NCBI RefSeq assembly: GCF_008084145.1
Contig: NZ_VSDO01000004.1
Span: 300,202-324,201, forward strand
Direction of reading: 5' to 3'
Source: Paenibacillus faecis
Lineage (GTDB): Bacteria > Bacillota > Bacilli > Paenibacillales > Paenibacillaceae
Length of the DNA: 24,000 bases
Shown here piece by piece: positions 5,122 to 20,473 of the stretch. Within the stretch, counting starts at the first letter, position 1. Every line of letters starts with the position of its first letter. The notes beneath the pieces were generated by a model, which worked only from the letters and a program-made list of their open reading frames with translations, was not told where the DNA came from and did no database searches. A program made the translations under genes and the position numbers.

Positions 5122-5958
5122 TTACGAGGACAACTCCACCTCATCGGCATTGGGACTAACCTCGTCCCCGTACCGCTCCAACGCTTTGGTGGACGCCTCC
5201 AGCATTCTCCGCTTCAAGTAGTCGCCCTCCAGAATCCGCACCCGTTTGCCGAGAAAACGGATTTTGGACAGGAGATACTCCACCTCGTCCCCCAGAACGC
5301 AGACGCGGAGGCGATAGGTGCCTTGCTCTTCATCGTATTCGACGGTTTTCTCGAAGCAGGAAAAAGCGTACAAAATGCGCGACAACTCTTTGTGGTATTC
5401 CCGGACCACCTCCAGGACGGTTTCCGTCTTTCGCGAGTCCAGCGTCCGGGCGATTTCCTCATAGACCTGGTCGGCGGCGGCCGGGTCCAGCGGTTCGGGG
5501 GCGATGGAGATCAATTTGCTCAGCCGGGTGCTCATGAGGGCATGGCGGCGCAGATCGTACCAGAGCAGATACCACTCCCTTTTGACCATGGAATATTCCA
5601 GCTTGTAAGCAAGCCCCGAACGATCGGGCTGTACCCGGCCGCGCTTGACCTGGAACGAGATCCGGATGCCGCTCCGCTCGACGATATGTCGGCGAAGGAT
5701 GCGCAGCAGCGGATGATAGACCTGTTTCTCCGCGCTTTTCGCCTTTTCGGTCAGATAATCGGAGGTGCTCAGCTCCTCTATGCTTTGCAGCAGCCCCTGC
5801 AGCTTTTGCCGGGTTTCCGGGGTAAAGGCCTCTTCGGCCGCCGGATGCTTCAGCATTTTTTTCAGCCAGGCCCGTTCGTGCGCGGTGACCATAAACGTGC
5901 CGGAATCGTCCAGACGGGAGATGACCTGGTAGTTAAAAATTTTCTCAAACGGATTCAT
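5122..5958 (-). CDS. WYL-domain protein (279 aa) without an obvious N-terminal HTH
   Basis: The WYL core reads ...LAYKLEYSMVKREWYLLWYDLRRHALMSTRLSKLISI. The C-terminal WCX-like region reads ...LLSKIRFLGKRVRILEGDYLKRRM. The ATG at 5958 (MNPFEK) follows GGAGAT and overlaps the upstream gene by 14 nt; the ORF-track start at 5988 lies inside the upstream gene. Confidence 0.75.
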   Translation of the reverse strand: MNPFEKIFNYQVISRLDDSGTFMVTAHERAWLKKMLKHPAAEEAFTPETRQKLQGLLQSIEELSTSDYLTEKAKSAEKQVYHPLLRILRRHIVERSGIRISFQVKRGRVQPDRSGLAYKLEYSMVKREWYLLWYDLRRHALMSTRLSKLISIAPEPLDPAAADQVYEEIARTLDSRKTETVLEVVREYHKELSRILYAFSCFEKTVEYDEEQGTYRLRVCVLGDEVEYLLSKIRFLGKRVRILEGDYLKRRMLEASTKALERYGDEVSPNADEVELSS

Positions 5959-7264
5959 AATAGGCCTGAATCTCCTTCCACTCGGCAATCATTTCGCGGC
6001 GAAAATAAAGCGGTTCGAGCACCTCGCAGCTGGAGCCGAAACTCCGAAGCCACGGCTTGATTTCGGTTGTGCCGTTAACCTTGATCTCGTAGATGAAGCT
6101 CTCCTCTTCCTCGGCGACGATTTGCCCCCATTGACCTTGCAGCAGGACGCGCTCCCTGACAAAGTTGGGTTCGAAATGACCGGGATTGAAAAAGCGGGCC
6201 CGCACCGTAACCGGCCGTCCGGTATCGAGCAGCCAGCTGTACCTCATCCTCTCCTCCAGTGCGGCCGCTTTCTCCGCAAATACCTGCTCGGCCACCGGGT
6301 CCTCCTCCTCGAGCTGGGTCATCCCTTCCATCCGGTATTTGCGGATGCCCTCTCTGCCGGAGGCGAGCAAATACCAGCGCCCGTATTGGTGATCGTAAAC
6401 GACCTTCAGGGGGAGGGTCTTCTCCAATTTCCCTTCCGATTCCCGTTCGAACAAGGGATTCGTATTTTGCGCGGCGTAACTTTTGTCGGCTTTGGGCGAA
6501 AAATACAAAAACCGCACCCGCCGCCGGTGCCGGATCGCGTCCAGAAGCGTGAACAAATGCGCCTCATCCAGAATCCGCGAATAATAGTGGTATTTATACA
6601 AAAAATGGTCCAGCGCCAGTGGCTCGGCCTGGTTTCGCAGCAGGTGCTTCTTTAGGCCGTCGCGGAGAAGATATCCCTGAACGGAGGGGATCTGCGTATT
6701 GGCCATCACATCCACGAAGTCGTACAGGTCGTAAAGCTCCTCTTCCGTCAATTCCCGCACCAGGTCGTTGTCCAACCGGTAGCGGTAGGGGCGGGAGGCG
6801 GACTCCTTGCGGATGACACCGACCTCTTCCAAATATTTCAGATCCGACCGAATCGTCTTCTCGTCGGGGAGCGGGATGTCGGCGGGGAGGCTGCCGCAGC
6901 AGTAGTCCATCAGCTCCATCGCCGTCAGCGCCTGGTCGTTCAGCGCGGCCAGAAGGAGCGAGTAGCGCACCGATTCCGATCCCTTCAGCGATTTCGCGCG
7001 GAACAGAAAGAGCAGCATCGGGTCGGCCGACTCGTAGTAATTAAAGCGGATCGCCTCCGCGAATTCCTTGCTCTGCTCCTGCGGCAGCTGCTGATACATC
7101 GTGCCGACGATATCCTTCAGCCGGCGCAGCGTCTTGTCGAACGTATGGACGGAGATACCGAGACGTTCGGCGAATTGCTGCCTGCTGTAGGCCCCGCTGG
7201 TCAGCACGAGCATCCGCAGAAACTGGATTTCCTTATCGAAGCTTTCTTTTGCCACCTCAACCAC
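5945..7264 (-). CDS. HTH-WYL-WCX transcriptional regulator (PafB/PafC, BrxR, CapW-type architecture), 439 aa
   Basis: The N-terminal HTH reads YSRQQFAERLGISVHTFDKTLRRLKDIV. A second winged-helix-like segment reads LTAMELMDYC...IRSDLKYLEEVGVIRKE. The WYL core reads VVYDHQYGRWYLLASGREGIRKYRMEGM. The C-terminal WCX reads IKPWLRSFGSSCEVLEPLYFRREM. The start is GTG 7264 or GTG 7255. Confidence 0.8.
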   Translation of the reverse strand: MVEVAKESFDKEIQFLRMLVLTSGAYSRQQFAERLGISVHTFDKTLRRLKDIVGTMYQQLPQEQSKEFAEAIRFNYYESADPMLLFLFRAKSLKGSESVRYSLLLAALNDQALTAMELMDYCCGSLPADIPLPDEKTIRSDLKYLEEVGVIRKESASRPYRYRLDNDLVRELTEEELYDLYDFVDVMANTQIPSVQGYLLRDGLKKHLLRNQAEPLALDHFLYKYHYYSRILDEAHLFTLLDAIRHRRRVRFLYFSPKADKSYAAQNTNPLFERESEGKLEKTLPLKVVYDHQYGRWYLLASGREGIRKYRMEGMTQLEEEDPVAEQVFAEKAAALEERMRYSWLLDTGRPVTVRARFFNPGHFEPNFVRERVLLQGQWGQIVAEEEESFIYEIKVNGTTEIKPWLRSFGSSCEVLEPLYFRREMIAEWKEIQAYYESV

Positions 7265-7302: not shown

Positions 7303-9126
7303 TCAGTCCATTCGGAAAACTTTGCCCTTGGGCACGAAGGGAAGATGGTGGCCTTTCGGAATCAGGAAAGCGTGCTCGCGGCGGATGCTCACCCGGTCGC
7401 AGTAGCCGTCCGTGATGATCAACAACGGGCCGCTTTTCGGAAAATCCCCGGCATGCTCGAGCAGATCGATGGCCGGCTGCAGGATTGTTCCGCCCCTGCC
7501 TTTGACGGAGACGCGGTCCGCAATCGCTTCCGGCGCGAGGTATCCTTGATCATAGACGGCCGCGTCGCAAAACACGACCCGGACGAGCGGCACATCCCGG
7601 GCCATGCTGTAGCTGGCGATCGCCCCAAGGGCCTTGCCCAGCAGCTTGGTGTCCATGGAACCGGAGGTATCCAGAACCACCCCGAAGGTGCGGCCGTCCT
7701 CGGCTCCCGCATCCGGCACCCAGCGGGGGCGGGGAATATCGGGGGTGGACGCTTGCCGGCGGCTGATCCTGGCGTAAGTCCGGACTTTTTCCAGCGGGGA
7801 AAAGTAGTTGTCGAACCACTTCGCCAGTTCCACGTCCCACAGGATCGGGGGCTGGGACAAGGCCCGGATCTCCTCGATCAGACCCGCCGGCAGGAAGCCC
7901 CGGTTTTGGTCAAAATGATAATCGAGCCCTTGGCTAAGACAGCTCCGATAAAATTCATCCAGTGTCAGCCCGTCTTTTCGGTCCCACCAATCGGGGACCT
8001 TCGGCTCCAGAATATCGCCCGTTCCGACGCCGCGAAAAGTCGCGACTTTCCGGTACAGCCGCATGTCCGTGACGATCCGGTCGTAAACGGATTCCGCCGA
8101 CAGTCCTTTAAGCTCCGGGTCATGCAGGCCTCCCACCCGCGGAAAGGCGCCCAACCCCATTTCCATAAGCCACCCGTTGATGACATAGTCGCAGGCGACA
8201 TTCCACAGATAGGGGTCACGCCCTTCCGCGCGGGCATGGTGCCGTAGTCCGACGTGCAGAAATTCGTGGGCGAGCACAAAACGGCATTCCTGCTCGTCCA
8301 GCCCGGCTGCAGGGTTGACGTAGATTTCCTTGGCCTCGGCATCGACGGCGGCCACCGAAATCGACAGGCGGGTGCAGAGCAGAGGATCCTCAATGATCCG
8401 GAAGTCCGCCGCCATCGCGCCCATCAGCGGGTAACTGCTGACAAACCAGTTACGGGCTTTCATTGCGGGCGTTAAAATATCGCGGTTTGCGCCGAGGTAA
8501 GCTTCATATCCCGCCGATACGTTGACCGCGCTCGTCACGGCCATGGCGAGCCCTTTGCCCAGCAAATCCTGCCAGTTGACGTTCTTGTTACCCCAGTAAG
8601 AGCGGTCGGAAGCCCTTGAGCTTAGGAGCATATCCTGGTGTCCGGGCCCAGCCGTGCCCAAGTTATGAAAGGAAGGGGGAAGCCCCTGGTCGATGAAGCT
8701 GCGATAGAGATCTTCTTCGGCCCCCTTTCCGGAAGGGATCTCTACCGACCCGTTCATCCCCTCAGGGGGCTTGCCCAGCCGCATATCGTATAGAAACTTG
8801 GCGATAAAAGCGTCGCAGGCCGTGTTCCACATGTCCTGCCGTTCCATTACCTTGAAATGCCCGAAACCTAGATGCAGAAGAGCATGGGCCAGAATGTAAA
8901 TCCATTCTTCGGGCAGGGCCCTGCGTTTCGGATGAACATGGATATACCCGCTGCTTGTCGTGACCGCCCAGCCGTTATCCGGACAGAGATTGCCCTCCAT
9001 GCGCACAAAATGAGCGTGCGACGCGAGCGGGGCAAACATCGGGTGACGGGAGATAAGCCGCAGCCCCTCCTCATAAGCCCGTGTGGCCGGGTCCATTTCT
9101 CCGGATTTTTGTTTTTGTTTTCCCAT
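7303..9126 (-). CDS. VWA-domain protein with two tandem DUF2201-type putative metallopeptidase modules (partner of the MoxR ATPase), 607 aa
   Basis: There is an internal duplication. Module 1 reads LAHALLHLGFGH...WNTACDAFI, with HALLH at nt 8872-8886 and the Glu lost. Module 2 reads LAHEFLHVGLRHH...WNVACDYVI, with HEFLH at nt 8254-8268. The C-terminal VWA carries the MIDAS motif VVLDTSGSMD (7657-7671). The ATG at 9126 lies 6 nt after the stop of the upstream ATPase gene. Confidence 0.85.
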   Translation of the reverse strand: MGKQKQKSGEMDPATRAYEEGLRLISRHPMFAPLASHAHFVRMEGNLCPDNGWAVTTSSGYIHVHPKRRALPEEWIYILAHALLHLGFGHFKVMERQDMWNTACDAFIAKFLYDMRLGKPPEGMNGSVEIPSGKGAEEDLYRSFIDQGLPPSFHNLGTAGPGHQDMLLSSRASDRSYWGNKNVNWQDLLGKGLAMAVTSAVNVSAGYEAYLGANRDILTPAMKARNWFVSSYPLMGAMAADFRIIEDPLLCTRLSISVAAVDAEAKEIYVNPAAGLDEQECRFVLAHEFLHVGLRHHARAEGRDPYLWNVACDYVINGWLMEMGLGAFPRVGGLHDPELKGLSAESVYDRIVTDMRLYRKVATFRGVGTGDILEPKVPDWWDRKDGLTLDEFYRSCLSQGLDYHFDQNRGFLPAGLIEEIRALSQPPILWDVELAKWFDNYFSPLEKVRTYARISRRQASTPDIPRPRWVPDAGAEDGRTFGVVLDTSGSMDTKLLGKALGAIASYSMARDVPLVRVVFCDAAVYDQGYLAPEAIADRVSVKGRGGTILQPAIDLLEHAGDFPKSGPLLIITDGYCDRVSIRREHAFLIPKGHHLPFVPKGKVFRMD

Positions 9127-9132
9127 AATCGA

Positions 9133-10194
9133 TCAGGCTTCCTTCTTCTGCACAAGTCTGGGCAAGTCCCGAACGATCTCCACCAGGAACCAATCCGGCA
9201 GACTCTCGCCGGCTTCGTCCCTGGCCACGGCCAGTTGGGCGATTTCGAGACTGATCGCGCTTAAATTTTTGAGCAGGGCCTTGGCGCGGTGGGCCAGCTT
9301 CTTATGATGTTCGGCGAGCGCGTCCTTGGATTCCGGCAGCTCCTTGATCAGGTGAGCCCGGAAAGACTGGGCCATAAAGTAAAGCACATCCCGGTCCTCC
9401 GGCTGGTGGGGCCAGTTCGCTCCGCCTTCGATAATCTCATGCAGCTTGTATTTATAATGGCTTTGCTTATAAAAAGCCTTCAGCTGCCCGGCGTGATGCG
9501 GCGATAGACAGCCCGTAGCAAGCACTTCCAGGGTATCCGGCCGCAGCCGATCCCCGTATTCCTTCAGCGCATCGCTTAACATATGCCACGATCTTGGCGT
9601 GGAGAACGGTTCCTCGTGCTTCGGCGGCTGAACCCACAGATGATCCGGGCGCGTCTCGATATATTGAATGACCAGGGGGTGGAGCTCGTTCTCGTAAGCC
9701 CACTCCAGCCATTCGCGGTGGGAAACCTTAAGCTGCACATGAAACATGCGGTTCATGAGCGCGGACGACATCGGCTTCACAATCGCGCTGTCCTGCGCCC
9801 GGTTTCCGGCTCCAATGACGACCGAGCCTTCCGGCAGACGGTATTCGCCGACGCGTTTTTCCAGAATCAAGCTGTAAAAAGCTTTCTGTACCTCGTGCGT
9901 GCAGGCGTTCAACTCATCCAGAAACAGGCAGTACGGCTCGTTTCGGGCGATCATGCTCGGCGGGCAAAACCGGCTCACCCCGCCGACGATTTGCGGCACC
10001 CCGATGAGGTCTTCCGGTGCCAGCTGGCTGCCGAGCAGCGAGACGCAAGGCAAGCCGACCAGATCGGCAAACCGCTGAACCAGCGAGGATTTTCCCACGC
10101 CCGGCGGCCCCCAGATAAACACCGGGCGGACGACGGCTACGTTTAATAGCAGCTCCATTAATTGCTTGGATGTTACAGAGGATGAAATATTCAT
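9133..10194 (-). CDS. MoxR-class AAA+ ATPase (CbbQ/NorQ/AAA_5-like), 353 aa
   Basis: Walker A reads FIWGPPGVGKSS (nt 10087-10110) and Walker B reads CLFLDELN. The sensor and Arg-finger region reads VIGAGNRAQDSAIVKPMSSALMNRM. It is immediately followed by a VWA partner, as in CbbQ/CbbO and NorQ/NorD pairs. Confidence 0.85.
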   Translation of the reverse strand: MNISSSVTSKQLMELLLNVAVVRPVFIWGPPGVGKSSLVQRFADLVGLPCVSLLGSQLAPEDLIGVPQIVGGVSRFCPPSMIARNEPYCLFLDELNACTHEVQKAFYSLILEKRVGEYRLPEGSVVIGAGNRAQDSAIVKPMSSALMNRMFHVQLKVSHREWLEWAYENELHPLVIQYIETRPDHLWVQPPKHEEPFSTPRSWHMLSDALKEYGDRLRPDTLEVLATGCLSPHHAGQLKAFYKQSHYKYKLHEIIEGGANWPHQPEDRDVLYFMAQSFRAHLIKELPESKDALAEHHKKLAHRAKALLKNLSAISLEIAQLAVARDEAGESLPDWFLVEIVRDLPRLVQKKEA

Positions 10195-10236
10195 GCTTTA
10201 TAATGATTTCCTTCCCTAAAAATTAACGTTATGAAC

Positions 10237-10245
10237 ATGATACCA
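10237..10245 (-). promoter_or_regulatory. Possible extended -10 (TGGTATCAT on the - strand) for the moxR-vwa-wyl operon
   Basis: The reverse complement of 10237-10245 is TGGTATCAT, about 40 nt upstream of ATG 10194. There is no convincing -35. Confidence 0.25.
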
Positions 10246-10431
10246 TAGGGTCCTTGAGGCGCAGGCCCGAAAAGATGGCTATACCCGTTTTGTCCCAAAA
10301 GGGGCCGGTTGCCGCGGACGGGACGGGGAGGAACCTTGGTCAGCGGTCGGCACCTCATTGGAGTTGTAATTAACCCGAGAGGGCTAACGCCTGTAACAGC
10401 CTTCCTCTGAAACCGGGCAGGGGGATAAGTG

Positions 10432-10640
10432 AATAAGAGCCTTTTGCGGCGCGATTTTGTCGAATTTGGCTCTTTGGCGTGAAATAGCGGTCTTTTGGGG
10501 CCTTATTTTAGAGAAAGTCGGGCAAAAACCGGATTTTGGGCTCGCACCAGAGAAATAAGGCCCTTTCTGGCCGCTATTTTTCCCGAAAACGCAAATCGGG
10601 CCGAAATAGCGGCCCAAAATGCCGCTATTGTGGCGGGCGG
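10432..10640 (+). repeat. Repeat family 2, copy 1: about 210-bp structured element built from AATAGCGG/CCGCTATT and AAATAAGGCC/GGCCTTATTT inverted units
   Basis: It aligns collinearly with 18576-18784 in the same orientation, for example ATTTTGTCGAATTTGGC, GAAATAAGGCC and GGCCGAAATAGCG. It contains nested inverted repeats, for example AAATAGCGGTC...GGCCTTATTT against AAATAAGGCC...GGCCGCTATTT. Confidence 0.8.
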
Positions 10641-10805
10641 CCGGGCGGACCGGGGAATTGGCGGCTCGGATCGATCGGCTCGTCACCATCCCCCTCAAAA
10701 ACCGGCTAAATTTTCCCCTCGTAATACTTTTGCCATGTTCGCGCGCGTAAAAATGAGCGAAGATAGGTTCACAAGGTCATCGCCGCAAGGGGACGGCCGA
10801 GTGAG

Positions 10806-10941
10806 ATCTTCGAGGCGCCTGGACGGGATCCTTCGCCTTTTAAGCGACTGGCCGTTGGTTCGAATCCAACTTCCGCCTAACGGCGGAATAGCTCAGAGGT
10901 AGAGCAGTTTATGTGACCTGTCCGCCTTTTTCCTCGAAGAT
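10806..10941 (+). ncRNA. yrlA: Y RNA 1, YrlA-type: Ro-binding-like basal helix plus a circularly permuted tRNA-like domain
   Basis: The basal stem ATCTTCGAGG (10806-10815) pairs with CCTCGAAGAT (10932-10941). A second stem pairs GGACGGG (10821-10827) with CCTGTCC (10918-10924), across the internal loop CGCCT / GCCTTTTT. Inside are a T-arm GTTGG-TTCGAAT-CCAAC (10854-10870), a closed acceptor-like stem TTCCGCC-TAAC-GGCGGAA (10871-10888), then TA and a D-arm GCTC-AGAGGTA-GAGC (10891-10905). It sits directly upstream of rsr. The exact 5' and 3' ends are unknown. Confidence 0.8.
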
Positions 10942-10965
10942 GAGTTGCATCAAATGCAGGAACGC

Positions 10966-11064
10966 GCGCGAGGCGCCTGAGAGGGTTACTTCGACTAATT
11001 AGGGATTAGTAATGATCGTGCCGGAGGGCACAGCAGCCTTCTCAACAAGCTTTCTTCCTCGCGC
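10966..11064 (+). ncRNA. Y RNA 2 (small, YrlB-like): same basal architecture with no tRNA-like module
   Basis: GCGCGAGG (10966-10973) pairs with CCTCGCGC (11057-11064). GAGAGGG (10979-10985) pairs with CCTTCTC (11037-11043). It shares the 5' motif GAGGCGCCTG...GGGTTACTTCG with the neighbouring Y RNAs. Internal hairpins are ACTAAT-TAGGG-ATTAGT and GTGCC-GGAG-GGCAC. Confidence 0.6.
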
Positions 11065-11090
11065 ACCCGTTCCCAGCACATCTAAATAAT

Positions 11091-11205
11091 ACCGGTGAGG
11101 CGCCGGGGCGGGTTACTTCGCCATCCAAGCGCACTTATGGAATTACCGGGCTTTACGGCAGGTTCGACTCCTGCACCGAACCCGCCCCTCTTTTTCCTCA
11201 CCGGT
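11091..11205 (+). ncRNA. Y RNA 3: same basal architecture plus a T-arm-like hairpin
   Basis: ACCGGTGAGG (11091-11100) pairs perfectly with CCTCACCGGT (11196-11205). GGGGCGGG (11105-11112) pairs with CCCGCCCC (11181-11188), across the loop CGCC / TCTTTTT. It has the GGGTTACTTCG motif and the T-arm-like GCAGG-TTCGACT-CCTGC (11158-11174). Confidence 0.65.
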
Positions 11206-11267
11206 GTTATCTAAATATTCCGTTGGGCGTCATTGCACTCACACACGGATATAGGAGGTTATTTAAA

Positions 11268-12773
11268 ATGAGTTTCGCCCAAAAATTGTTCGGTCCGTTC
11301 AGACCGACCACTCGCAACAAAGATCATTATCCCGCTTATACGCGGTCTGCGGAGGAACAGTACCTGCAGACTTTGCTGACCAATACGATGAGCAATACGT
11401 TTTATGCCGATCAAAAAGAACTCCTGAGCGATGCCGAGCAGCTCCACCATGAAATGGCGGCGGCCAACCCGACGTTTATGGCAAAAGCGCTCGTGTTCGC
11501 CCGCAACACCGGCCTGATGCGCCTGCAGCCGATCTTCGGCTTGGCGGTGCTCTCGGCCTACCGGCCGGATTTGTTCGCCAAGGTGTTCCCGCAGGTCGTG
11601 CGGATTCCTTCCGACCTGTTCGACTTCCTGACCATTCTGAAGGGTCAGGGTCGGGGCGAGGGCGGCCGTGCGGTCAAGCGCCAGGTGAACCACTTCCTGG
11701 CCGGCGTCAGCGAATACTGGGCCGTCAAATACAACGGCCGCGGCCGCGGCTACAGCCTGGGTGACGTGATCGCCACGGCCCATCCGAAGCCGGCGGACTT
11801 GAAGCAGCAGGCGCTGTTCCGGTACCTGCGCGGCTGGGAGGCCGACCTCGAGCTGCTGCCGCAGGTGGCGGCGCTGGAGCGGCTGAAGCGCGCCGCGAGC
11901 GAAAGCGAGCAAATCGAGTGGATCGGCCGCGGCAAGCTTCCGTACGAGACGGTCACCGGCGCGATTCAGCCGACCAAGGCCGTGTGGGAGGCGTTGCTGT
12001 ACCAGATGCCGACCTTTGCGCTGCTCCGCCACCTGAACGCCCTGCAGCGGGCGGGCGTCCTCGACGACAAGCGGAACCTGGACTACGTCATCGCGCGGTT
12101 CAACGATGAGGAGGCGCTGCGCAAGGCGCGCATCCTGCCGTTCCGGTTCGCGACGGCGTTCCGTCAGGTCGAGCATCCCGATCTGCGCGACGCGATGCGG
12201 GACGCGGTGGACCTGACTTTCGGCAACCTGCCGGATTTGGGTGAGGACACGGCGATTTTCCTGGACATCTCCGGCTCGATGGAGGGACAATACCTGGAGA
12301 CCGGTTCGGTATTTGCCCTGGCCCTGTATAAGAAGACGCAGGGGAACTCGCTGTTCTGGCTGTTCAACCACGAGGTCCGCGACGCGAGACCTTCGAAGCG
12401 CGACAGCATTCTCGGCCAGGCGCAGCATATCCGCGCCGGCGGCGGGACCGATACCGGTGCCCCCGTGCGCAAGCTGCTCCTGGAGCGCAAGCGGGTGGAC
12501 CAGATCATTATCATTACGGATGAGCATCAAAACACCGGCAGCCCGTTCTACCGGGAGCTGGCCCAGTACCGTGCCGCCATCAACCCGGAAGTCAAGGCGT
12601 TCATCGTGGACATCGCTCCTTACCGGTACGCGATGGTGCCGGAAATGGACCGCAACACCTTTTACATCTACGGTTGGAGCGACACGGTCCTGTCCTACAT
12701 TGCCCAGACGCTGCAAGGCTACGCGTCCATGACGAAGCAAGTGGATGCCATGGACCTCGACAAGAAGGAGTGA
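11268..12773 (+). CDS. rsr: Ro60 orthologue Rsr (TROVE domain + C-terminal vWA with MIDAS), 501 aa
   Basis: ATG 11268 lies 9 nt after GGAGG (11254-11258). The N-terminal TROVE-like sequence reads ...YLQTLLTNTMSNTFYADQKELL...AKALVFARNTGLMRLQPIFGLAVL. The vWA MIDAS reads AIFLDISGSM...GGGTDTG...IIITDE. It is flanked upstream by Y-RNA-like genes. The ORF-track TTG at 11223 has no RBS. Confidence 0.9.
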   Translation: MSFAQKLFGPFRPTTRNKDHYPAYTRSAEEQYLQTLLTNTMSNTFYADQKELLSDAEQLHHEMAAANPTFMAKALVFARNTGLMRLQPIFGLAVLSAYRPDLFAKVFPQVVRIPSDLFDFLTILKGQGRGEGGRAVKRQVNHFLAGVSEYWAVKYNGRGRGYSLGDVIATAHPKPADLKQQALFRYLRGWEADLELLPQVAALERLKRAASESEQIEWIGRGKLPYETVTGAIQPTKAVWEALLYQMPTFALLRHLNALQRAGVLDDKRNLDYVIARFNDEEALRKARILPFRFATAFRQVEHPDLRDAMRDAVDLTFGNLPDLGEDTAIFLDISGSMEGQYLETGSVFALALYKKTQGNSLFWLFNHEVRDARPSKRDSILGQAQHIRAGGGTDTGAPVRKLLLERKRVDQIIIITDEHQNTGSPFYRELAQYRAAINPEVKAFIVDIAPYRYAMVPEMDRNTFYIYGWSDTVLSYIAQTLQGYASMTKQVDAMDLDKKE

Positions 12774-12779
12774 TCCCCT

Positions 12780-13577
12780 ATGACCCAGGAATCGTCCGAA
12801 TTCCGCCCCGTCATCCTGAACGAGCTTCGGCGCATTGAAGAGCAGGAAGGGGTTCGTATTCTGTACGCCTGCGAGTCGGGAAGCCGCGCTTGGGGCTTCC
12901 CTTCGCGGGACAGCGACTACGATGTCCGGTTTCTTTATATCCGGCCTCTGGACTGGTATCTATCCATTTTTGAGGGACGGGATGTGATCGAGCGGCCGAT
13001 CAGCGATCAACTGGACATCAACGGTTGGGACTTGAAGAAGGCCTTGCAGCTATTCCGCAAATCGAACCCGCCCTTATTGGAATGGCTGTATTCTCCGATA
13101 CAATATTTGGAGAAGTATTCCGTGGCGGAGCAGATCCGCCGCATATCCCCGCTGACGTTTTCGCCAAAATCATGCATATACCATTATCTCAACATGGCGA
13201 AGGGGAATTTCCGGGGATACCTGCAAGGGGAACGGGTGAAGATCAAGAAGTATTTCTACGTACTGCGGCCGGTGCTCGCCTGCGGCTGGATCGAGAAGCA
13301 CAATACGATGCCTCCGGTGGAGTTCGATAAACTGGTGGAGGACTTGATCCCGCCGGAAAGCGCACTGATGGATGCGGTTCAACGCCTGCTTGCTCGCAAA
13401 AAAGCCGGGGAAGAGCTTGATCTGGAGCCTAAGTTGACCGCCATCCACGAATATTTGGAGGAGCGCTTGGATTACTTCGAGGAGGCGGCCGCCCAATTCA
13501 GGACAGAACCGTTGCAGCTCGAAGACGAGCGGTTGGACGCCCTCTTTCGCTCCGCCTTGCGCGAGGTATGGGCGTAG
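12780..13577 (+). CDS. Pol-beta-superfamily nucleotidyltransferase (RlaP-like, RNA-ligase/repair-associated NTase)
   Basis: The NTase motif reads LYACESGSRAWGFPSRDSDYDVRFLY (GS...DxD). The ATG lies 6 nt after the rsr stop, with GAAGGAG upstream. The family assignment is from memory of the PF10127-type sequence pattern. Confidence 0.75.
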   Translation: MTQESSEFRPVILNELRRIEEQEGVRILYACESGSRAWGFPSRDSDYDVRFLYIRPLDWYLSIFEGRDVIERPISDQLDINGWDLKKALQLFRKSNPPLLEWLYSPIQYLEKYSVAEQIRRISPLTFSPKSCIYHYLNMAKGNFRGYLQGERVKIKKYFYVLRPVLACGWIEKHNTMPPVEFDKLVEDLIPPESALMDAVQRLLARKKAGEELDLEPKLTAIHEYLEERLDYFEEAAAQFRTEPLQLEDERLDALFRSALREVWA

Positions 13578-13623: not shown

Positions 13624-14892
13624 ATGGCTATCGTACAGGTTACATCCACGAATCCGAAGTTTTCATTTTTGATCAAGAAAAATCCGCAATCCGGTATGCA
13701 GCTGCGCTCGGTTCGCAAAGGGACGGCGTACGGCTGGTATAGCGGTGAACAGACCTTTAACGTGTATTTTAAAGACGCGGACAACGATATTTCGTATAAG
13801 CAGCATGAGGGGGAGACTTTCGAGTACCTGAACGTGTCGAGATACAATACGCCGCTGTTTCCGTTGAACGCGATCGGCGAGTTCTTTTCCGCTCCGTTAA
13901 AAGCGCGGCATGAGCAGGATACGGAGGGGTATGAGCATACCTTTTTCATCAATATGATTCATATCGAACGGTTGCCGTATATCGATTTTTTCAAGAAGCA
14001 CTTGCAGGATTTCTCATTCGAAATCACCCACCGGGCGCACAAAAGCTATGCCCTGACCGTTAGGACGCACAAAAGCCTGTACCAGCTCCTTCACGCGGTG
14101 AGCGTATTGTGCTTGTTCCTGTCGATGTTCGGCAATGAGCACGTGGATATTTCGGACAGCATTCTGGACAAATACATCAAGAGCCTCCATGTGATCGACG
14201 CGCCGTTTTACATTCGGAGCTTGTTCGTACGGAATTTTCTGGCTTCCCGGGACCGGTTCAAAAAATACAAGGCGGAGCTCGAGAAGACGGACCGCTACAG
14301 CATTCGCTTTGCTTTTGGCGGCACGGCGCTGCAGCGGCGGAACTACATCGGAAGCGCGCTCGCTTTTGACAAGTCGATTCTCGACGTGGGCTGCGGGGAA
14401 GGATTCTACGCGATTCCTTTTGCCGGAAAAATCGAAGGCAGCTATTACGCGGTCGATATCAACGAGGAGCTGTTGGAGCAAGTCCAGCGGAAGGCCGCGC
14501 GAAAAGAGCTGGACAATATCATCACGTTCGCTTCGATCGATCTTTTTCTGGAGAGCTACAACGGGGAACGGGTCGATGTGATTTTGACCGAGGTCATCGA
14601 GCATATGAGCCAGGAGGAAGCGGAGCGACTGATCCGGCAAATCTGCGGGCAGGTGGATTTCGACCGGTTGATCATCACGACGCCGAATGCCGACTTTAAC
14701 CGCTATTATGAGTTGGAGGGTTTCCGGCACGACGATCACAAATGGGAGCTGGGCGGAGCTTCGTTCCAGGCCTGGATCGGCGATCTGTTGAAGCGCTTCG
14801 CGAACTTGCAGTATGAATTTGTGGCCATCGGCGACGAGGTCGACGGGATCACCACGACCCAAGGGGTTATTTTGAAGAGAGAGGGGGCCTGA
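13624..14892 (+). CDS. hen1: Bacterial Hen1, RNA 3'-terminal ribose 2'-O-methyltransferase
   Basis: The N-terminal Pnkp-activating domain begins MAIVQVTSTNPKFSFLIKKNPQSGMQ... The C-terminal SAM-methyltransferase carries ILDVGCGEGFYAIPFA, the metal motif LTEVIEHM and ...FRHDDHKWE. It ends 3 nt before pnkp. Confidence 0.9.
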   Translation: MAIVQVTSTNPKFSFLIKKNPQSGMQLRSVRKGTAYGWYSGEQTFNVYFKDADNDISYKQHEGETFEYLNVSRYNTPLFPLNAIGEFFSAPLKARHEQDTEGYEHTFFINMIHIERLPYIDFFKKHLQDFSFEITHRAHKSYALTVRTHKSLYQLLHAVSVLCLFLSMFGNEHVDISDSILDKYIKSLHVIDAPFYIRSLFVRNFLASRDRFKKYKAELEKTDRYSIRFAFGGTALQRRNYIGSALAFDKSILDVGCGEGFYAIPFAGKIEGSYYAVDINEELLEQVQRKAARKELDNIITFASIDLFLESYNGERVDVILTEVIEHMSQEEAERLIRQICGQVDFDRLIITTPNADFNRYYELEGFRHDDHKWELGGASFQAWIGDLLKRFANLQYEFVAIGDEVDGITTTQGVILKREGA

Positions 14893-14895
14893 TCC

Positions 14896-17517
14896 ATGGA
14901 GATCCGGACGAAGGTTCATACGGTTTTTATGCTGATCGGCTCTACCGAATGCGGCAAAACCACGTTCGCCAAGGAAGTGTTGGTTCCGGGGCTGCGGTTT
15001 GAAGATCGGGACAAAAACATCAAGGCCAACGTGCAATATCTGTCCTCCGACCAGATTCGCCAGGAGGTGCTCGGCCATGATTACGACAAGTACGACCAGG
15101 TGATGCTGGAGGCCAGCGAGCAGGCGTTTCATCTTCTGTTCGAGCGGTTGAAAATGGCGACTTCTTTTCCGGTCAACGCGGAGTTCGTGGTGGTCGATAC
15201 CACCGGGTTGTCCGAGGATTTCCGGGCCAAAGTGAAGGATATCGCCTATCGGAACAATTACAATCTGGAAGCGATCGTGTTCGATTACCGGAAGCGGGAC
15301 GATTACTACGCCTCGGAGCGCTCGAAGAAGCTCATCACCAACCATATCAACCGGCTGAAAAAAGAGGTCCTGGGCTCGCTGGCCCGCGAAGGGTACGACA
15401 AAATTCATAAGGTGCGGGCTAAGGATTTTTACCGGTCCGAGGAAGGGAAGGCGAATCCGGAATACCGCGTCGTCATTGAAAATCTGGAGGATTATCTGGG
15501 CGGCGTTCTCCCGCAGGATCAGCAGTATATTATCATCGGCGACGTCCATGAATGTGTAGGCGATTTGCAGGGGCTGCTGCGCGACCACGGCTTCGGGCTG
15601 GAGGACGGCAGGCTGTCGGCGCCCGAGCGATTGCGGCGGACGAAGATCGTCCTGGTGGGGGACTGGATCGACAAAGGCCGGCAAACGAAGGAGATCATCG
15701 AATTCCTTTACGAAAACCGGGAGTATTTCTACTTTGTGCTCGGCAACCATGAAAATTTTGTGGGCAAATATTTGAACGGGGAAATTCAGGGCGCCGATCA
15801 TGAACTGGTCCGCTCGTATTTCGACTCGATTGAGGTATTGCGCAGCGATGCGGAACTTCTGGAGAAATTCCGGCAACTGGTGTCGCTGTCGAAGCCGTTT
15901 TACCGGTATGTCGGGGTCCAAGGTCCTTCGTTTTATGTCACCCATGCGCCGTGCCGGAAAAAATACATCGGGAAGCTGGACACAAACTCGGCGCGGCACC
16001 AGCGGAATTTCCGGATCGACCGGGAGGCTCCGCTCGAGGAGCAGCTGGCCTTTCTGGAGGAGGAAGCGGTGTCCAATCATCCGTACCATGTGTTCGGACA
16101 TATTGCGGCGAAGCAGCCGTTCCGCATCCGCAACAAAATCCATATCGATACCGGCAGCGTTCACGGGAATCAGTTGACTTCGGTCGGCATCTCGTACAAA
16201 CCGTTCCTGAAGTCCCGCAAGTCCGCCCAGGCGGTCATCGGGGGAGGGGAAGAGCTGAAGACGCTGTTCAAGCGGGAGCGGAAGGTGTCGGTGGCGGACC
16301 TGGAAGAGGACGAAATCCGCCGGCTGCATTACTGCTCGCGGCATAAGATCAACTTTATCTCCGGGACGATGTCGCCGGCCGATAAGGACGAAGCGAGCGG
16401 CGAGCTGGAGTCTCTGGAGCGCGGACTGGCTTATTTCAGGGACCGCGGCGTGACGCAAGTCGTACTGCAGCCCAAATATATGGGCTCGAGATGCAATGTG
16501 TATCTGCATAAGGAGCCGGAGCGTTGCTTTGCCGTCAGCCGGAACGGATACAAGATCAATCAGGTGGACTTGTCGGAGATCTTCGGCAAGCTGCTGCGGA
16601 AGTTCGGCGCCTATATGGAGGAGCGTCAGATTGCCATGCTTATGCTGGACGGGGAGCTCCTGCCGTGGAAGGCGCTGGGCGAAGGCCTGATCGAACGGCA
16701 GTTTAAGCCGATCGGGGCAGCGCTGGAATCCGAGCTTGCGTTTCTGCGGCATAACGGCTTCGAGCAGGCGTTCGGGAAGCTGCTGGAGGACTATGAAGCG
16801 AGCGGCTTTGAGCAGGACCAGTTCCGCGTTTCGAAGTCCGCCCTGAGCGACAAATACGGTCCGAGCGTGTACCAGAACTACAAGCATGTTCATGAGCTCC
16901 GCGACACCTATGTCCCGCTGGAAGAACATGTCCAAGCTTACGAGACCTATAAGCGTCAGTTGGAATGGTATGCGGCGGACGGCGAAGGCGAAGTGGAGCT
17001 GGAGTTGGAGCTGGAGCTGGAGTACAAACCGTTTGCCCTGCTCAAAATCGTCTACGAGGACGGGCGGGAGCAATTGCCGGATTGGACGACGTCCGACATG
17101 TACGGGTTCCTGTCGGAGGACGAAGCGCTGGCGCTGGACTTGTCCGCGCCGGACAGTCTGGAGCAAGCGGAGCGGTACTTCGCCGAACTGACGCTGGAGA
17201 AGCATATGGAGGGCGTCGTTATCAAACCGGAGGTGTGGACCGGCGCCACCGTGCCTTACATGAAGGTGCGGAACCCCGAGTACCTGTCCATCATCTACGG
17301 CTACGACTACCGGTTCCCGCACAAGTACCGCAAGCTGCTCAAGCAAAAGAACATCAGCCAGAAGCTGCGCGCCTCGCTGAACGAGTACCGGCTCGGGATG
17401 AGCCTGCTGGGCGTTCCTTTCGCCGACATCGCCCCCGGGCACGCGGCGTATCAGGAAATCGCCGCCAACCTGCTGTTTGAAGTGGCGCAGGAGAAGGCCA
17501 TCGATCCGCGGCTGTAA
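14896..17517 (+). CDS. pnkp: Polynucleotide kinase-phosphatase-ligase Pnkp (trifunctional RNA end-healing and sealing enzyme), 873 aa
   Basis: The kinase P-loop reads GSTECGKTT (aa 15-23). The calcineurin-type phosphoesterase motifs are IIGDVHEC, GDWIDKG and GNHE. The adenylyltransferase/ligase domain carries QPKYMGSR (Lys about 527). The length and domain order match Clostridium thermocellum Pnkp. Confidence 0.9.
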   Translation: MEIRTKVHTVFMLIGSTECGKTTFAKEVLVPGLRFEDRDKNIKANVQYLSSDQIRQEVLGHDYDKYDQVMLEASEQAFHLLFERLKMATSFPVNAEFVVVDTTGLSEDFRAKVKDIAYRNNYNLEAIVFDYRKRDDYYASERSKKLITNHINRLKKEVLGSLAREGYDKIHKVRAKDFYRSEEGKANPEYRVVIENLEDYLGGVLPQDQQYIIIGDVHECVGDLQGLLRDHGFGLEDGRLSAPERLRRTKIVLVGDWIDKGRQTKEIIEFLYENREYFYFVLGNHENFVGKYLNGEIQGADHELVRSYFDSIEVLRSDAELLEKFRQLVSLSKPFYRYVGVQGPSFYVTHAPCRKKYIGKLDTNSARHQRNFRIDREAPLEEQLAFLEEEAVSNHPYHVFGHIAAKQPFRIRNKIHIDTGSVHGNQLTSVGISYKPFLKSRKSAQAVIGGGEELKTLFKRERKVSVADLEEDEIRRLHYCSRHKINFISGTMSPADKDEASGELESLERGLAYFRDRGVTQVVLQPKYMGSRCNVYLHKEPERCFAVSRNGYKINQVDLSEIFGKLLRKFGAYMEERQIAMLMLDGELLPWKALGEGLIERQFKPIGAALESELAFLRHNGFEQAFGKLLEDYEASGFEQDQFRVSKSALSDKYGPSVYQNYKHVHELRDTYVPLEEHVQAYETYKRQLEWYAADGEGEVELELELELEYKPFALLKIVYEDGREQLPDWTTSDMYGFLSEDEALALDLSAPDSLEQAERYFAELTLEKHMEGVVIKPEVWTGATVPYMKVRNPEYLSIIYGYDYRFPHKYRKLLKQKNISQKLRASLNEYRLGMSLLGVPFADIAPGHAAYQEIAANLLFEVAQEKAIDPRL

Positions 17518-17529
17518 TGACGATGCACA

Positions 17530-17567
17530 AGAGCCTGAACCGCCGGGAGGGGGTTCAGGCTCTTTTT
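17530..17567 (+). terminator. Rho-independent terminator of the rsr-pnkp operon
   Basis: AGAGCCTGAACC (17530-17541) pairs perfectly with GGTTCAGGCTCT (17552-17563), a 12-bp stem followed by TTTT. It lies 13 nt after the pnkp stop. Confidence 0.8.
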
Positions 17568-17591
17568 GGGGCATCCGTGCCGCTCTGAATA

Positions 17592-17786
17592 TTATTAACG
17601 GGAAAACCTCCCGTTAATTTTCCGCTCTTGGGCGTTGGATTCGAAATAGATGGAAAAGTTCCATCTATTTTACGCCCAACCGCCGAGATACATTGGTTTC
17701 GGCTAAATTAGCGGGAGGTTTTCCAGCTAATTCGACTTTGCAGCCCAATAGGCCCAATTTAACGGGAGGAAATCCCGTTAGTTGGG
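17592..17786 (-). repeat. Repeat family 1, copy C (inverted relative to copies A and B), followed by a degenerate duplicated ~60-nt unit to about 17880
   Basis: The reverse complement aligns along its full length with copy A (...GAATTAGCTGGAAAACCTCCCGCTAATTT..., ...AAAATTAACGGGAGGTTTTCCCGTTAATAAT). It contains the perfect 12-bp palindrome AAATAGATGGAA/TTCCATCTATTT. The unit at 17760-17819 recurs in diverged form at 17820-17879. Confidence 0.8.
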
Positions 17787-18020
17787 ACTATGGCTCCGCA
17801 AAACGGGTTAGTCACCTCGTTAACGGGAGGGAGTGCCGCTAGCCGGGATACTTGTCCCGCAAGACGGGGAGTCACTCATGATGATCGGAGGGATTCCCGT
17901 TAGCTGGGCGCTGGTACTGGGTACTGGCTACTGGGTGATAATTCATGGCTTCCTGTATCCCCAGCCGGCGCTCCGGCGCCTCCGGATTCATTTGGTTGGC
18001 GGCCTGCTCGTTGTTTGGAC

Positions 18021-18413
18021 TTACGCCCCGGTTTGCCCTTGCTGTTTCAACAGATCGCGGATTTCCGCGAGCAGCGCTTCCTCCTTGGACGGTTCGGGCG
18101 GGGCTTCCGGCTTCGGCGCCTCTTCCTTCCGTTTGAACCTGTTGAGTCCTTTCACAAACAGGAAAATGGAGAAAGAGATAATGAAGAAATCGATGACGGT
18201 CTGCAAAAAAGCGCCGTACAACAATTTCGTTTCCCCGTATTGAAAGATCAGGTCCTTGAAGTCGATGCCGCCCATCAAAATCCCGAATAGGGGCATCAGC
18301 ATGTCATTGACCAGGGAAGTTACGATTTTTCCGAAAGCGCCCCCGATAATGACCCCGATGGCCAGATCGAGGACATTGCCCTTCAGGGCAAAGGCTTTAA
18401 ACTCTTTCCACAT
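18021..18413 (-). CDS. mscL: Large-conductance mechanosensitive channel MscL
   Basis: [42 protein letters not shown]... is a textbook MscL N-terminus with TM1. ATG 18413 lies 9 nt after AAAGGTGGG; the ORF-track start at 18437 overlaps that RBS. Confidence 0.9.
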
Positions 18414-18575
18414 TCTAGTAAACCCACCTTTTTTCATATATTACAGGCAGTATACCATATAAGGTGTAGGGGAGAAATCCATAGCCATGGCGGAACGGAC
18501 GGGACGGGGCCTTTGCGAATGTACGGAAGGTGGTGCATACGGCGACCACTGTCTCCTGTTGGAGCTGGGCGGAGG

Positions 18576-18784
18576 AATAGCGGTCATTTGCGCCGTTATT
18601 TTGTCGAATTTGGCTAATCGGAGGAAAATAGCGGCCTTTTGGGCGCTTATTTTGGGGTAAAACGGGCCAAAACCTGATTTTGGGGCCGGTGAGAGGGAAA
18701 TAAGGCCTTTTTTGACCGCTATTTTGCTCGCGGAGCCGAATTTGGCCGAAATAGCGCCTCAAAAGACCGTTATTTGCGGCGGGG
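18576..18784 (+). repeat. Repeat family 2, copy 2 (same orientation as copy 1)
   Basis: It is collinear with 10432-10640. It lies in the divergent mscL/kptA intergenic region and ends 44 nt before the candidate kptA promoter. Confidence 0.8.
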
Positions 18785-18827
18785 AACGAAAGTGCAGCGG
18801 GAGCGGGACGACAAAAAGATCCGCCGC

Positions 18828-18856
18828 ATGACCTTCCGGTTCAGGGGAGTTATAAT
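18828..18856 (+). promoter_or_regulatory. Candidate sigma-A-type promoter for the kptA operon
   Basis: ATGACC (18828-18833), a 17-nt spacer, then a perfect TATAAT (18851-18856), about 75 nt upstream of the kptA ATG. Confidence 0.4.
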
Positions 18857-18930
18857 GCAATCAAGGACAGGTTGGTAGAATCCGCCAACAGAACAATCAC
18901 AGCACAACCAACAGAACGAAGGGGGTGAAC

Positions 18931-19488
18931 ATGATGCTGGATTCAAATTCGGAGAAAGGGCTCAGCAAGCTGATGAGCAAAATGCTCCGCCATACCCCGG
19001 AGGAATTCGGCCTTCAACTGAGTCCCGAAGACGGGTCGTGCGCGATGGACACGTTTCTCCAGGCGGTCACGGCCCAGCGGCGGTGGTCCTGGGTACGGCG
19101 CGAAGATGTGGAGCAGGTCGTCCGCAACTCCGATAAGCAGCGTTACATCATCGAGAATGACCGCATCCGGGCCAGATACGGCCACAGTCACACTCGGGTG
19201 CAGTACGCTCCGGCCGAGCCTCCCGCCGTGTTATACCACGGAACGAACCGGAAGGCGCTCCCGGCCATACTCCAGGAAGGACTTCGCCCGATGACGCGGC
19301 AATATGTCCATCTGTCGGAAGGGACGCATTTCGCCACGCTGGCGGGGAGCCGCCGAGGAGAGCTAGTCATCCTCCGGATCAATACGCAAAAAGCGAGGGA
19401 GGCGGGCGTGAGCTTTTACTTCGCCGGGAATGAAGTATGGCTGGCCGATCGGATCCCGCCGGGATGCTGCGAAATGGACGGAACCTAG
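18931..19488 (+). CDS. kptA: RNA 2'-phosphotransferase, Tpt1/KptA family
   Basis: The translation reads LSKLMSKMLRHTPEEFGLQL...RYGHSH...VLYHGTNRKALPAILQEGLRPMTRQYVHLSEG. This carries the Arg-His-Arg-Arg catalytic-tetrad context of Tpt1. ATG 18931 lies 5 nt after GAAGGGGG; the alternatives are 18925 and 18934. Confidence 0.85.
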   Translation: MMLDSNSEKGLSKLMSKMLRHTPEEFGLQLSPEDGSCAMDTFLQAVTAQRRWSWVRREDVEQVVRNSDKQRYIIENDRIRARYGHSHTRVQYAPAEPPAVLYHGTNRKALPAILQEGLRPMTRQYVHLSEGTHFATLAGSRRGELVILRINTQKAREAGVSFYFAGNEVWLADRIPPGCCEMDGT

Positions 19489-19547
19489 CCGTTCCGCGGA
19501 CCGCGGCGGATTTTACCCATGACATAACTGCGGAGGTTGTACGGAAA

Positions 19548-20465: not shown

Positions 20466-20473
20466 GGGAAGAG

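Follow-up and report, generated by a model that had tools for sequence, protein, structure and literature searches.

What precedes the gene for Rsr, the bacterial Ro60 orthologue, in Paenibacillus faecis, and why does it come in three parts? The question is raised by nucleotides 10806-11205 (+ strand) of a 24,000-nt stretch of contig NZ_VSDO01000004.1, referred to here as the window, in which an earlier note had recognized three tandem Y-RNA paralogues adjoining rsr, one of them carrying a circularly permuted tRNA mimic. Our answer, to which we assign a probability of about 0.8, is that this array specifies three Rsr-associated Y RNAs co-expressed with an RNA-repair operon. The array and the gene that follows it are organized as follows:

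10806-10941, + strand: module 1, 136 nt, class A, YrlA-type Y RNA
10966-11064, + strand: module 2, 99 nt, class B, Y-like RNA
11091-11205, + strand: module 3, 115 nt, class C, Y-like RNA
11268-12773, + strand: rsr, bacterial Ro60 orthologue (Pfam TROVE 4e-16, vWA_Ro60)

The rsr ATG is located 62 nt past module 3 and is preceded by GGAGG. As the earlier note had supposed, the downstream open reading frame (ORF) encodes a TROVE protein with a Ro60-type vWA domain, related to the Rsr of D. radiodurans (PDB 2nvo, 1.6e-19) and to the Ro60 of X. laevis (PDB 1yvp, 5e-17).

An automatic search for helix partners returned module boundaries identical to those proposed, and all the helices and motifs that had been described are present. 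Unconstrained minimum free energy (MFE) folding of each module recovered the blueprint said to be common to the three: an 8-10-bp terminal helix closing with GAGG/CCUC leads through an asymmetric internal loop into an inner helix (7-10 bp, one strand G-rich and the other C-rich), beyond which lies a variable distal part. The terminal helices are ATCTTCGAGG/CCTCGAAGAT (10 bp) in module 1, GCGCGAGG/CCTCGCGC (8 bp) in module 2 and ACCGGTGAGG/CCTCACCGGT (10 bp) in module 3. The 5' side of the internal loop reads CGCC in module 3 and CGCCT in modules 1 and 2, and its 3' side is pyrimidine-rich; the inner helices are GGACGGG/CCTGTCC, GAGAGGG/CCTTCTC and GGGGCGGG/CCCGCCCC, respectively. The 5' strand of the inner helix is followed by GGGTTACTTCG in modules 2 and 3 and by GGGATCCTTCG in module 1 (scaffold form GGG-YUAY-CUUCG), and all three modules include the invariant 5' block GAGGCGCC-N-G...GGG-N-U-N-CUUCG. 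The MFE z-scores against dinucleotide shuffles were -3.3, -2.9 and -3.3 for modules 1, 2 and 3. The stem made by the paired 5' and 3' ends, a defining property of Y RNAs, is therefore found in all three modules by folding, and covariation in the orthologues agrees.

To compare the array with its relatives we used 22 rsr loci from Paenibacillus, Cohnella and Gorillibacterium (Paenibacillaceae) with Rsr identities of 68-98%; the source of the window is close to P. sanfengchensis, with which its Rsr shares 98% identity. Each locus has one to three modules with the common 5' block upstream of rsr, and these fall into three discrete classes, which invariably precede rsr in the order A, B, C. Members of class A are 129-143 nt long and carry V, T, capped acceptor-like and D arms; those of class B (68-108 nt) form plain hairpins, and those of class C (104-119 nt) combine a V-like hairpin with a GGG element and a T arm. 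Each class also has its own family of terminal helices, AUCAUCGAGG or UCGUUGAGG in A, GRAGCGAGG in B and GCCGGYGAGG in C, with paired substitutions. The complete A-B-C set is found in eight sources (the window and loci L001, L002, L003, L006, L009, L011 and L021), A-C in five, A-B in eight, mostly Cohnella, and B-C in L017. Paenibacillus oceani (L010:1128-1241) has a single chimeric module with the class A 5' terminal strand ATCTTCGAGG and the body and 3' strand (CCTCGCCGGT) of class C, as a result of which its terminal helix is partly mismatched; it has the look of a deletion in which A and C recombined at their conserved GAGGCG blocks.

The classes were aligned separately with MAFFT, and pairing within each was as follows:

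class A, 20 sequences: 97% of pair cells standard, 18 of 37 pairs changed on both sides
class B, 16 sequences: 96% of pair cells standard, 7 of 16 scaffold pairs changed on both sides
class C, 14 sequences: 97% of pair cells standard, 8 of 26 pairs changed on both sides

All three modules of the window thus have orthologues carrying compensatory base changes. None of 500 column shuffles reached the observed covariation in any class, and sliding the pairing partners by 1-3 columns lowered pairing to 35-65%. Compensatory covariation between paralogues, which had been proposed from the three inner helices of the window, extends to 49 distinct modules, over which this helix is 98-100% paired while its pairs switch among GC, AU, UA and CG. 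The cross-class pair statistics were taken from helix coordinates, the class C 3' inner strand being one column off in the all-class MAFFT alignment (A5); the window-free alignment (A6) is in register. Modules A and C are 68-88% identical between species, compared with 72-84% for rsr coding DNA, and the inter-module spacers (17-24 nt) are unconserved, with identities of 14-60%. A scaffold model (R2) trained on 37 modules of other species, leaving out the window and the near-identical relative L001, was searched on both strands of the window with filters off. It found module 1 at 88 bits (3e-20), module 2 at 55 bits (4e-12) and module 3 at 95 bits (4e-22); the next best match in the 24 kb, on either strand, had E = 0.48.

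Module 1 is a canonical YrlA. Its elements, all on the + strand, are:

10806-10815 with 10932-10941: terminal helix (sequence and MFE)
10812-10819: conserved 5' motif GAGGCGCC
10820-10827 with 10917-10924: inner helix
10833-10847: V-like hairpin
10854-10870: T arm, GTTGG-TTCGAAT-CCAAC
10871-10888: capped 7-bp acceptor-like stem, TTCCGCC-TAAC-GGCGGAA
10889-10890: UA (TA) dinucleotide
10891-10905: D arm, GCTC-AGAGGTA-GAGC

The T arm, TAAC-capped stem, UA and D arm are all present as first described. The arms follow the YrlA order (V, T, capped acceptor-like, D) with a UA linker and T and D loops of the tRNA type, and the end of the module precedes the rsr ATG by 327 nt, both being on the + strand, as expected of YrlA genes, which share the strand of rsr and lie no more than about 4 kb from it. 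Pairing among the 20 class A orthologues is 100% in the T stem, whereas the D stem does not vary at all; the acceptor-like stem has 7 bp that are 97% paired, with compensatory changes in six of the seven pairs. The Rfam YrlA model (RF02553) aligned with module 1 end to end (model positions 1-114) with E 5e-7, placing the T, acceptor and D arms correctly, although under the gathering score. The permutation of tRNA order through a capped acceptor stem, to which the earlier note drew attention, is indeed the layout of module 1; it is not special to this locus, since it belongs to the published definition of YrlA (PMC4201824; 10.1101/312249). On the more speculative adaptor reading considered below, class A RNAs, with their conserved 7-bp acceptor stem, may be cut by RNase P and receive a CCA end as in M. 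smegmatis, which would render a two-piece Y RNA.

Arms of this kind also invite a different explanation, in which the modules would be tRNA pseudogenes, or else generic intergenic repeats (REP-like or mobile-element remnants) situated near rsr by chance. On part of module 1 the Rfam tRNA model reaches 28 bits, just short of the 29 bits of its gathering score; in a class A orthologue (L002:5562-5618) it reaches 31.9 bits over the V and T region, and genuine tRNA clusters are found near the Cohnella arrays. In module 1, however, the match misreads the V hairpin as an anticodon arm; the cloverleaf, free acceptor ends and anticodon arm expected of a tRNA are absent; ARAGORN identified no tRNA or tmRNA in the window; and the conserved scaffold (GAGGCG ... 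CYUC), the helices of which covary, is unlike tRNA. The distribution of the scaffold does not resemble that of a generic repeat either. A joint scaffold covariance model of the modules (R1) gave 61 matches in the 311 kb of the window and the 22 loci, searched on both strands, and all 61 precede rsr on its own strand. Among metagenomic and viral loci all strong R1 matches except those in L054 and L145 were on a contig with an rsr match, and these lie beside rsr on the same strand, with the exceptions of L175 (>3 kb upstream) and one match in L147 (>4 kb downstream). We consider a pseudogene or repeat origin extremely improbable. As the L002 RNA passes the tRNA gathering score, YrlA-type RNAs of this clade can be mis-annotated by automated procedures as tRNAs or pseudo-tRNAs.

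Modules 2 and 3 are best described, on their sequence and position, as putative YrlB-like companions of the Y RNA encoded by module 1. They share the 5' motif and the position beside YrlA with the shorter, Rsr-bound YrlB RNAs of S. Typhimurium and M. smegmatis, a comparison made by description as there is no public YrlB model. The distal, or effector, part of module 2 consists of two hairpins, ACUAAU-UAGGG-AUUAGU and GUGCC-GGAG-GGCAC, and lacks a T or D arm. Module 3 has a V-like hairpin, a GGG-containing element and, at 11158-11174 (+ strand), the T-arm-like hairpin GCAGG-TTCGACT-CCTGC, and lacks acceptor and D arms. The T-arm-like hairpin of module 3 and the lack of such arms in module 2, seen in the sequence and in the MFE folds, are as the earlier note had them. 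With Rfam at E<=10 no family was found on modules 2 and 3 except for a chance-level tRNA-Sec match; the only families in the array region at that threshold were YrlA, tRNA, tRNA-Sec and one minus-strand Plastid-psbl-rps4 3'UTR.

From the succession of full tRNA mimic, T arm only and neither, the earlier note had suggested a graded series that could be a snapshot of duplication and decay, and in the extreme case only module 1 would be functional, modules 2 and 3 being degenerating duplicates. Such a process would account for the absence of B or C in many lineages, for the truncated 68-nt B of L006 and for the one mismatched, chimeric module of L010. What the comparison reveals in the window's modules 2 and 3 is nevertheless two discrete conserved classes with class-specific helices and effector domains, separated by unconserved spacers. 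B and C are each recognizable down to 68-72% Rsr identity, their class-specific terminal helices change by compensatory substitutions, and the A-B-C order is constant. The internal hairpins of class B, which has two subtypes, covary, including those of the Paenibacillus subtype; the class C T arm (GCAGGUUCGAcUCCUGC) is nearly invariant in 14 loci, and class C as a whole is conserved like rsr DNA while the spacers are not. The graded series is therefore not upheld, and we regard decay of modules 2 and 3 as very unlikely.

Some observations weigh against three Rsr-associated Y RNAs, and they have to be considered together. The score of module 1 with the YrlA model, 39 bits, is well below the Rfam gathering score of 69; no Rfam family matched in the window at gathering thresholds, and the YrlA threshold was reached in none of 11 related loci. 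We read this as the mark of a divergent clade beyond the reach of the seed, because the alignment is full-length with E 5e-7. All three modules of the window read GGCGCC where the published Rsr-recognition motif has GNCGAA. In the window the motif is GGCGCCUG, which keeps the GNCG and the final G of the published GNCGAA(N0-1)G and has CC in place of AA. The orthologues include GGCGAA, GGCGCA, GGCGCC, GGCGTA and other variants, and GAGGCG is invariant in all 49 distinct modules. Judging from these alignments, the AA of the motif appears to be dispensable in this clade, the motif being relaxed to GNCG, a finding that we count as new. Classes B and C are each absent from some lineages (Cohnella with A-B; several Paenibacillus and Gorillibacterium with A-C) and therefore neither is indispensable. 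Finally, S. Typhimurium YrlA's tRNA-like domain has no known function (PMC4201824; 10.1101/312249).

The genes around the array identify the processes with which the Y RNAs would be associated. In addition to rsr they are:

12780-13577, + strand: rlaP, RNA-repair-associated nucleotidyltransferase of the Pol-beta family (Pfam RlaP 1e-98)
13624-14892, + strand: hen1, RNA 3'-end 2'-O-methyltransferase (Pfam Hen1_N 3e-106 and methyltransferase domains)
14896-17517, + strand: pnkp, polynucleotide kinase-phosphatase/ligase, the Hen1 partner (Pfam PNKP_ligase 3.5e-33, Metallophos, AAA_33)
7303-10194, - strand: MoxR-type AAA ATPase and DUF2201 metallopeptidase/VWA-like pair, inserted between the WYL gene and the array
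5945-7264, - strand: divergent HTH-WYL-WCX regulator (Pfam WYL, WCX, HTH_11)

RlaP adds nucleotides to the 3' ends of damaged RNA, and Hen1-Pnkp heals, methylates and seals broken RNAs. About 1.4 kb past pnkp, at 18925-21349 (+ strand), we observed genes for a KptA/Tpt1 RNA 2'-phosphotransferase, an R2K-clade ATP-grasp protein and an ADP-ribosylglycohydrolase; the gap at 17518-18924 has no ORF of at least 150 amino acids. Since rsr, RlaP, Hen1, Pnkp, KptA/Tpt1, ATP-grasp, ADP-ribosylglycohydrolase and the AAA and WYL genes are found together, the region can be considered, on its gene content, an RNA-repair island in which the KptA and ADP-ribosylglycohydrolase genes would extend the theme of RNA repair and ADP-ribose. 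In 17 of the 22 loci the WYL gene is found upstream of the array in the opposite orientation, and in seven of these it directly adjoins the array, which makes its product a candidate sensor or regulator of the operon. The MoxR-AAA/DUF2201 insertion is found only in the window, L001, L002 and L004.

Two conserved blocks precede the array by about 40-85 nt:

10720-10740, + strand: 21-nt element CGTAATACTTTTGCCATGTTC, which precedes module 1 by about 65 nt
10753-10767, + strand: second block ATGAGCGAAGATAGG, from the alignment of 20 upstream regions

The window has a single copy of the 21-nt element, against 0.01 expected by chance, and 20 of the 22 loci have one copy upstream of the array; the element is also kept in the alignment of class A upstream regions, and a second copy is present downstream of rsr in L011 (L011:7564-7584). 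It is likely a promoter or operator of the array-rsr operon, to judge from its conservation, and the second block may serve as a -10-like element or belong to the operator; together they form a bipartite candidate operator for the WYL regulator. After the second block comes a short leader, in which 10775-10798 may form a GCAA-capped hairpin. A sigma-70 consensus scan of 10150-11350 on both strands detected no promoter, inspection by eye against SigA, SigD, sigma-54 and ECF-like spacing found no sigma factor that fits the element, and within 10150-11350 the + strand is free of terminator-like sites past position 10502. The single conserved upstream element, the conserved divergent WYL gene and the lack of a detectable internal promoter or terminator lead us to infer one regulated promoter that drives array-rsr-rlaP-hen1-pnkp, with the RNAs released by processing.

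These same features suit an alternative in which the modules act in cis, as elements of the rsr mRNA leader (autoregulatory sites for Rsr, or attenuators) that are not released in trans: they are on the same strand and immediately 5' of rsr, 62 nt from its ATG, and the one promoter-like element precedes the whole array, inside which neither promoter nor terminator was detected. A leader function does not explain the Cohnella modules that lie about 2 kb upstream with tRNA genes between them and rsr, the modules 3' of rsr in viral loci L176 and L199, or the L054 module, which is directly 5' of hen1 on a fetched stretch with no rsr match. Moreover, the Salmonella Y RNAs are 3' of rsr, and those found 5' of rsr in M. 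smegmatis are processed and bound in trans (PMC4201824). We therefore think an exclusively cis-acting array unlikely; cis-leader and trans Y-RNA roles could coexist.

If the modules are trans-acting Y RNAs, as we prefer, the locus could work in the following way. Transcription would start just downstream of the 10720-10767 element and run into rsr, and cleavage of the single precursor would yield species of about 136, 99 and 115 nt. The 5' and 3' ends of each pair into a long stem, with the invariant GAGGCG of its 5' strand as the clade form of GNCGAA(N)G, and because of the homology with the X. laevis and D. radiodurans complexes the ring-shaped Rsr would be expected to bind each RNA on the 5' strand of the terminal and inner stem. 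At the distal end module 1 presents the YrlA tRNA-like domain, with the Rsr-binding stem in place of the anticodon arm, module 3 a T arm and a small GGG element, and module 2 two plain hairpins. These ends could act as alternative adaptors or gates, either tethering Rsr to partners (PNPase, RlaP and Hen1-Pnkp are candidates) or blocking its RNA-binding surfaces. That three different distal modules have all been conserved speaks for non-redundant roles, with a putative division of labour among the three RNAs. That each class recruits a distinct effector is a more speculative proposition, for which we would not hold much hope, and we are similarly doubtful that the classes are dedicated adaptors that dock Rsr to RlaP, Hen1-Pnkp or PNPase or gate classes of damaged RNA. 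Were it true, the array would be an interchangeable adaptor set that is induced through a WYL sensor and serves the triage of RNAs between repair and destruction, and the class repertoire (A-B-C, A-C, A-B plus D), the Cohnella tRNA clusters and a ten-module phage array could be seen as adaptor diversification under ribotoxin conflict. YrlA has been the object of a published speculation as a competitive inhibitor of an anticodon nuclease.

A fourth class, D, with the terminal helix AUCAUGGAGG/CCUCCAUGAU, a T-arm-like hairpin and a long hairpin, was observed about 2 kb upstream of rsr in Cohnella and P. glycinis, the latter (L011) having all four classes (D, A, B, C). Same-strand tRNA clusters are located between the class D and class A modules, inside the RNA-repair locus:

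class D modules: L012:4001-4121, L013:3964-4084, L014:4052-4176, L015:4036-4155, L016:3964-4087, L020:4077-4196, L022:2802-2923, L011:3532-3639
tRNA clusters: L012:4633-4970, L013:4601-4938, L014:4665-5001, L016:4600-4937, L011:4379-4784, L022:3619-4959 (14 tRNAs); L015 and L020 with 3 tRNAs

The clusters code for His(GUG), Gln(UUG), Glu(UUC) and Asn(GUU) tRNAs, and in L022 also for Lys, Asp, Pro, Ile and Trp tRNAs. Those isoacceptors are largely targets of known anticodon nucleases (colicin E5, gamma-toxin/PaT, PrrC), which suggests a supply of spare tRNAs coupled to repair. A class A module (L054:3191-3327, 88 bits) is found directly 5' of hen1-pnkp on a metagenome contig (RCUN01002314.1), and no match to rsr or rlaP was found on the fetched stretch of this 5.8-kb contig, a hint that linkage of a Y RNA to Hen1-Pnkp does not require rsr next to it.

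Viral rsr loci (L173-L201) were found by an alignment-based scan of viral contigs; a single-protein scan with the Rsr of the window had given no match. Tandem Y-like arrays are common in them, and 39 of 39 model matches are on the rsr strand; the YrlA gathering score was reached in none of the 15 viral loci tested. The 224,466-bp viral contig IMGVR_UViG_3300009671_000009 has ten tandem same-strand Y-RNA-like modules (L027:2606-4218, equivalent to L174:2305-3917) directly 5' of a phage TROVE/Rsr gene (L027:4302-5804), flanked by tRNA genes and HNH endonucleases. About four of these are YrlA-like, with T, capped acceptor and D arms, one has its D-like and T-like hairpins reversed, and the rest are short; the Rfam YrlA model gives only 33-34 bits, on two of the ten. 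Other viral arrays consist of six modules followed by a tmRNA gene and tRNAs (L175:76-866), four and five modules 3' of rsr (L176:5503-5866 and L199:5739-6354) and three modules interleaved with tRNA genes (L177:3446-3968). The Cohnella class D modules and tRNA clusters and these phage arrays may merit more attention than the window itself. The Rfam YrlA model misses both the whole clade and the phage arrays, and Y RNAs are thus under-annotated in Firmicutes and viruses.

Compared with known systems, the locus extends an established arrangement and overturns nothing. Burroughs and Aravind reportedly noted in 2016 an association of Ro and Y RNAs with several RNA-repair systems. Among the papers covered by a full-text search, none combined Y RNA, Paenibacillus and Rsr. 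Chen 2014 (PMC4201824) described the arm order V-T-AS-D, the motifs GNCGAA(N)G and YUAY, the occurrence of several Y RNAs per rsr locus and a T arm in M. smegmatis YrlB, and YrlA itself was described as a circularly permuted tRNA by Wang 2018 (10.1101/312249). Module 1 agrees with YrlA in the order of its arms, V, T, capped acceptor-like, UA and D, in the Rsr stem made from the 5' and 3' ends, in the YUAY that follows it, in its tRNA-like T and D loops and in its place on the rsr strand. It differs in having GGCGCC instead of GNCGAA, in a score too low for Rfam annotation and in the terminal stem of its clade, which pairs GAGG/CCUC and leaves the CGNN of the motif in the internal loop. The acceptor-like stem has 7 bp in module 1 and in M. 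smegmatis YrlA, unlike that of Salmonella YrlA.

The M. smegmatis locus is similar in that rsr is preceded, on its own strand, by more than one Y RNA, one of them a full tRNA mimic with a 7-bp acceptor stem and the other a shorter RNA with a possible T arm, like module 3. There YrlA and the T-arm-bearing YrlB are cut from one precursor and bound by Rsr (PMC4201824); the one-precursor origin established in that species is what we propose by extension for the window. The number of RNAs is two in M. smegmatis, in contrast to three here and four in P. glycinis, and the classes described here come from comparative analysis alone. That companion Y RNAs form conserved classes across a bacterial family is new. 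D. radiodurans, with Yrn1, Yrn2 and the RYPER complex, likewise has several Y RNAs upstream of rsr, and there a Y RNA tethers Rsr to an effector, PNPase; Deinococcus Y RNAs are co-transcribed with a tRNA, which can be compared with the Cohnella loci. That lineage is nonetheless separate, both strands of its Ro-binding helix are conserved, and its T and D elements are oriented otherwise.

A further parallel is the RtcR-controlled rsr-Y RNA-RtcB/RtcA operon (PMC7790460), where Rsr and Y RNAs are also part of an RNA-repair operon with a divergent ligand-sensing regulator upstream. The partners of the Y RNAs are RlaP, Hen1 and Pnkp here, as opposed to RtcB and RtcA; the regulator is an HTH-WYL-WCX protein, as opposed to a CARF-AAA+ sigma-54 activator; and the Y RNAs are 5' rather than 3' of rsr. 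This set of partners under a WYL regulator is also new, and the presence of up to four discrete, conserved Y-RNA classes in one putative transcription unit alongside Rsr and three repair enzymes of defined biochemistry makes the candidate partners of these RNAs explicit.

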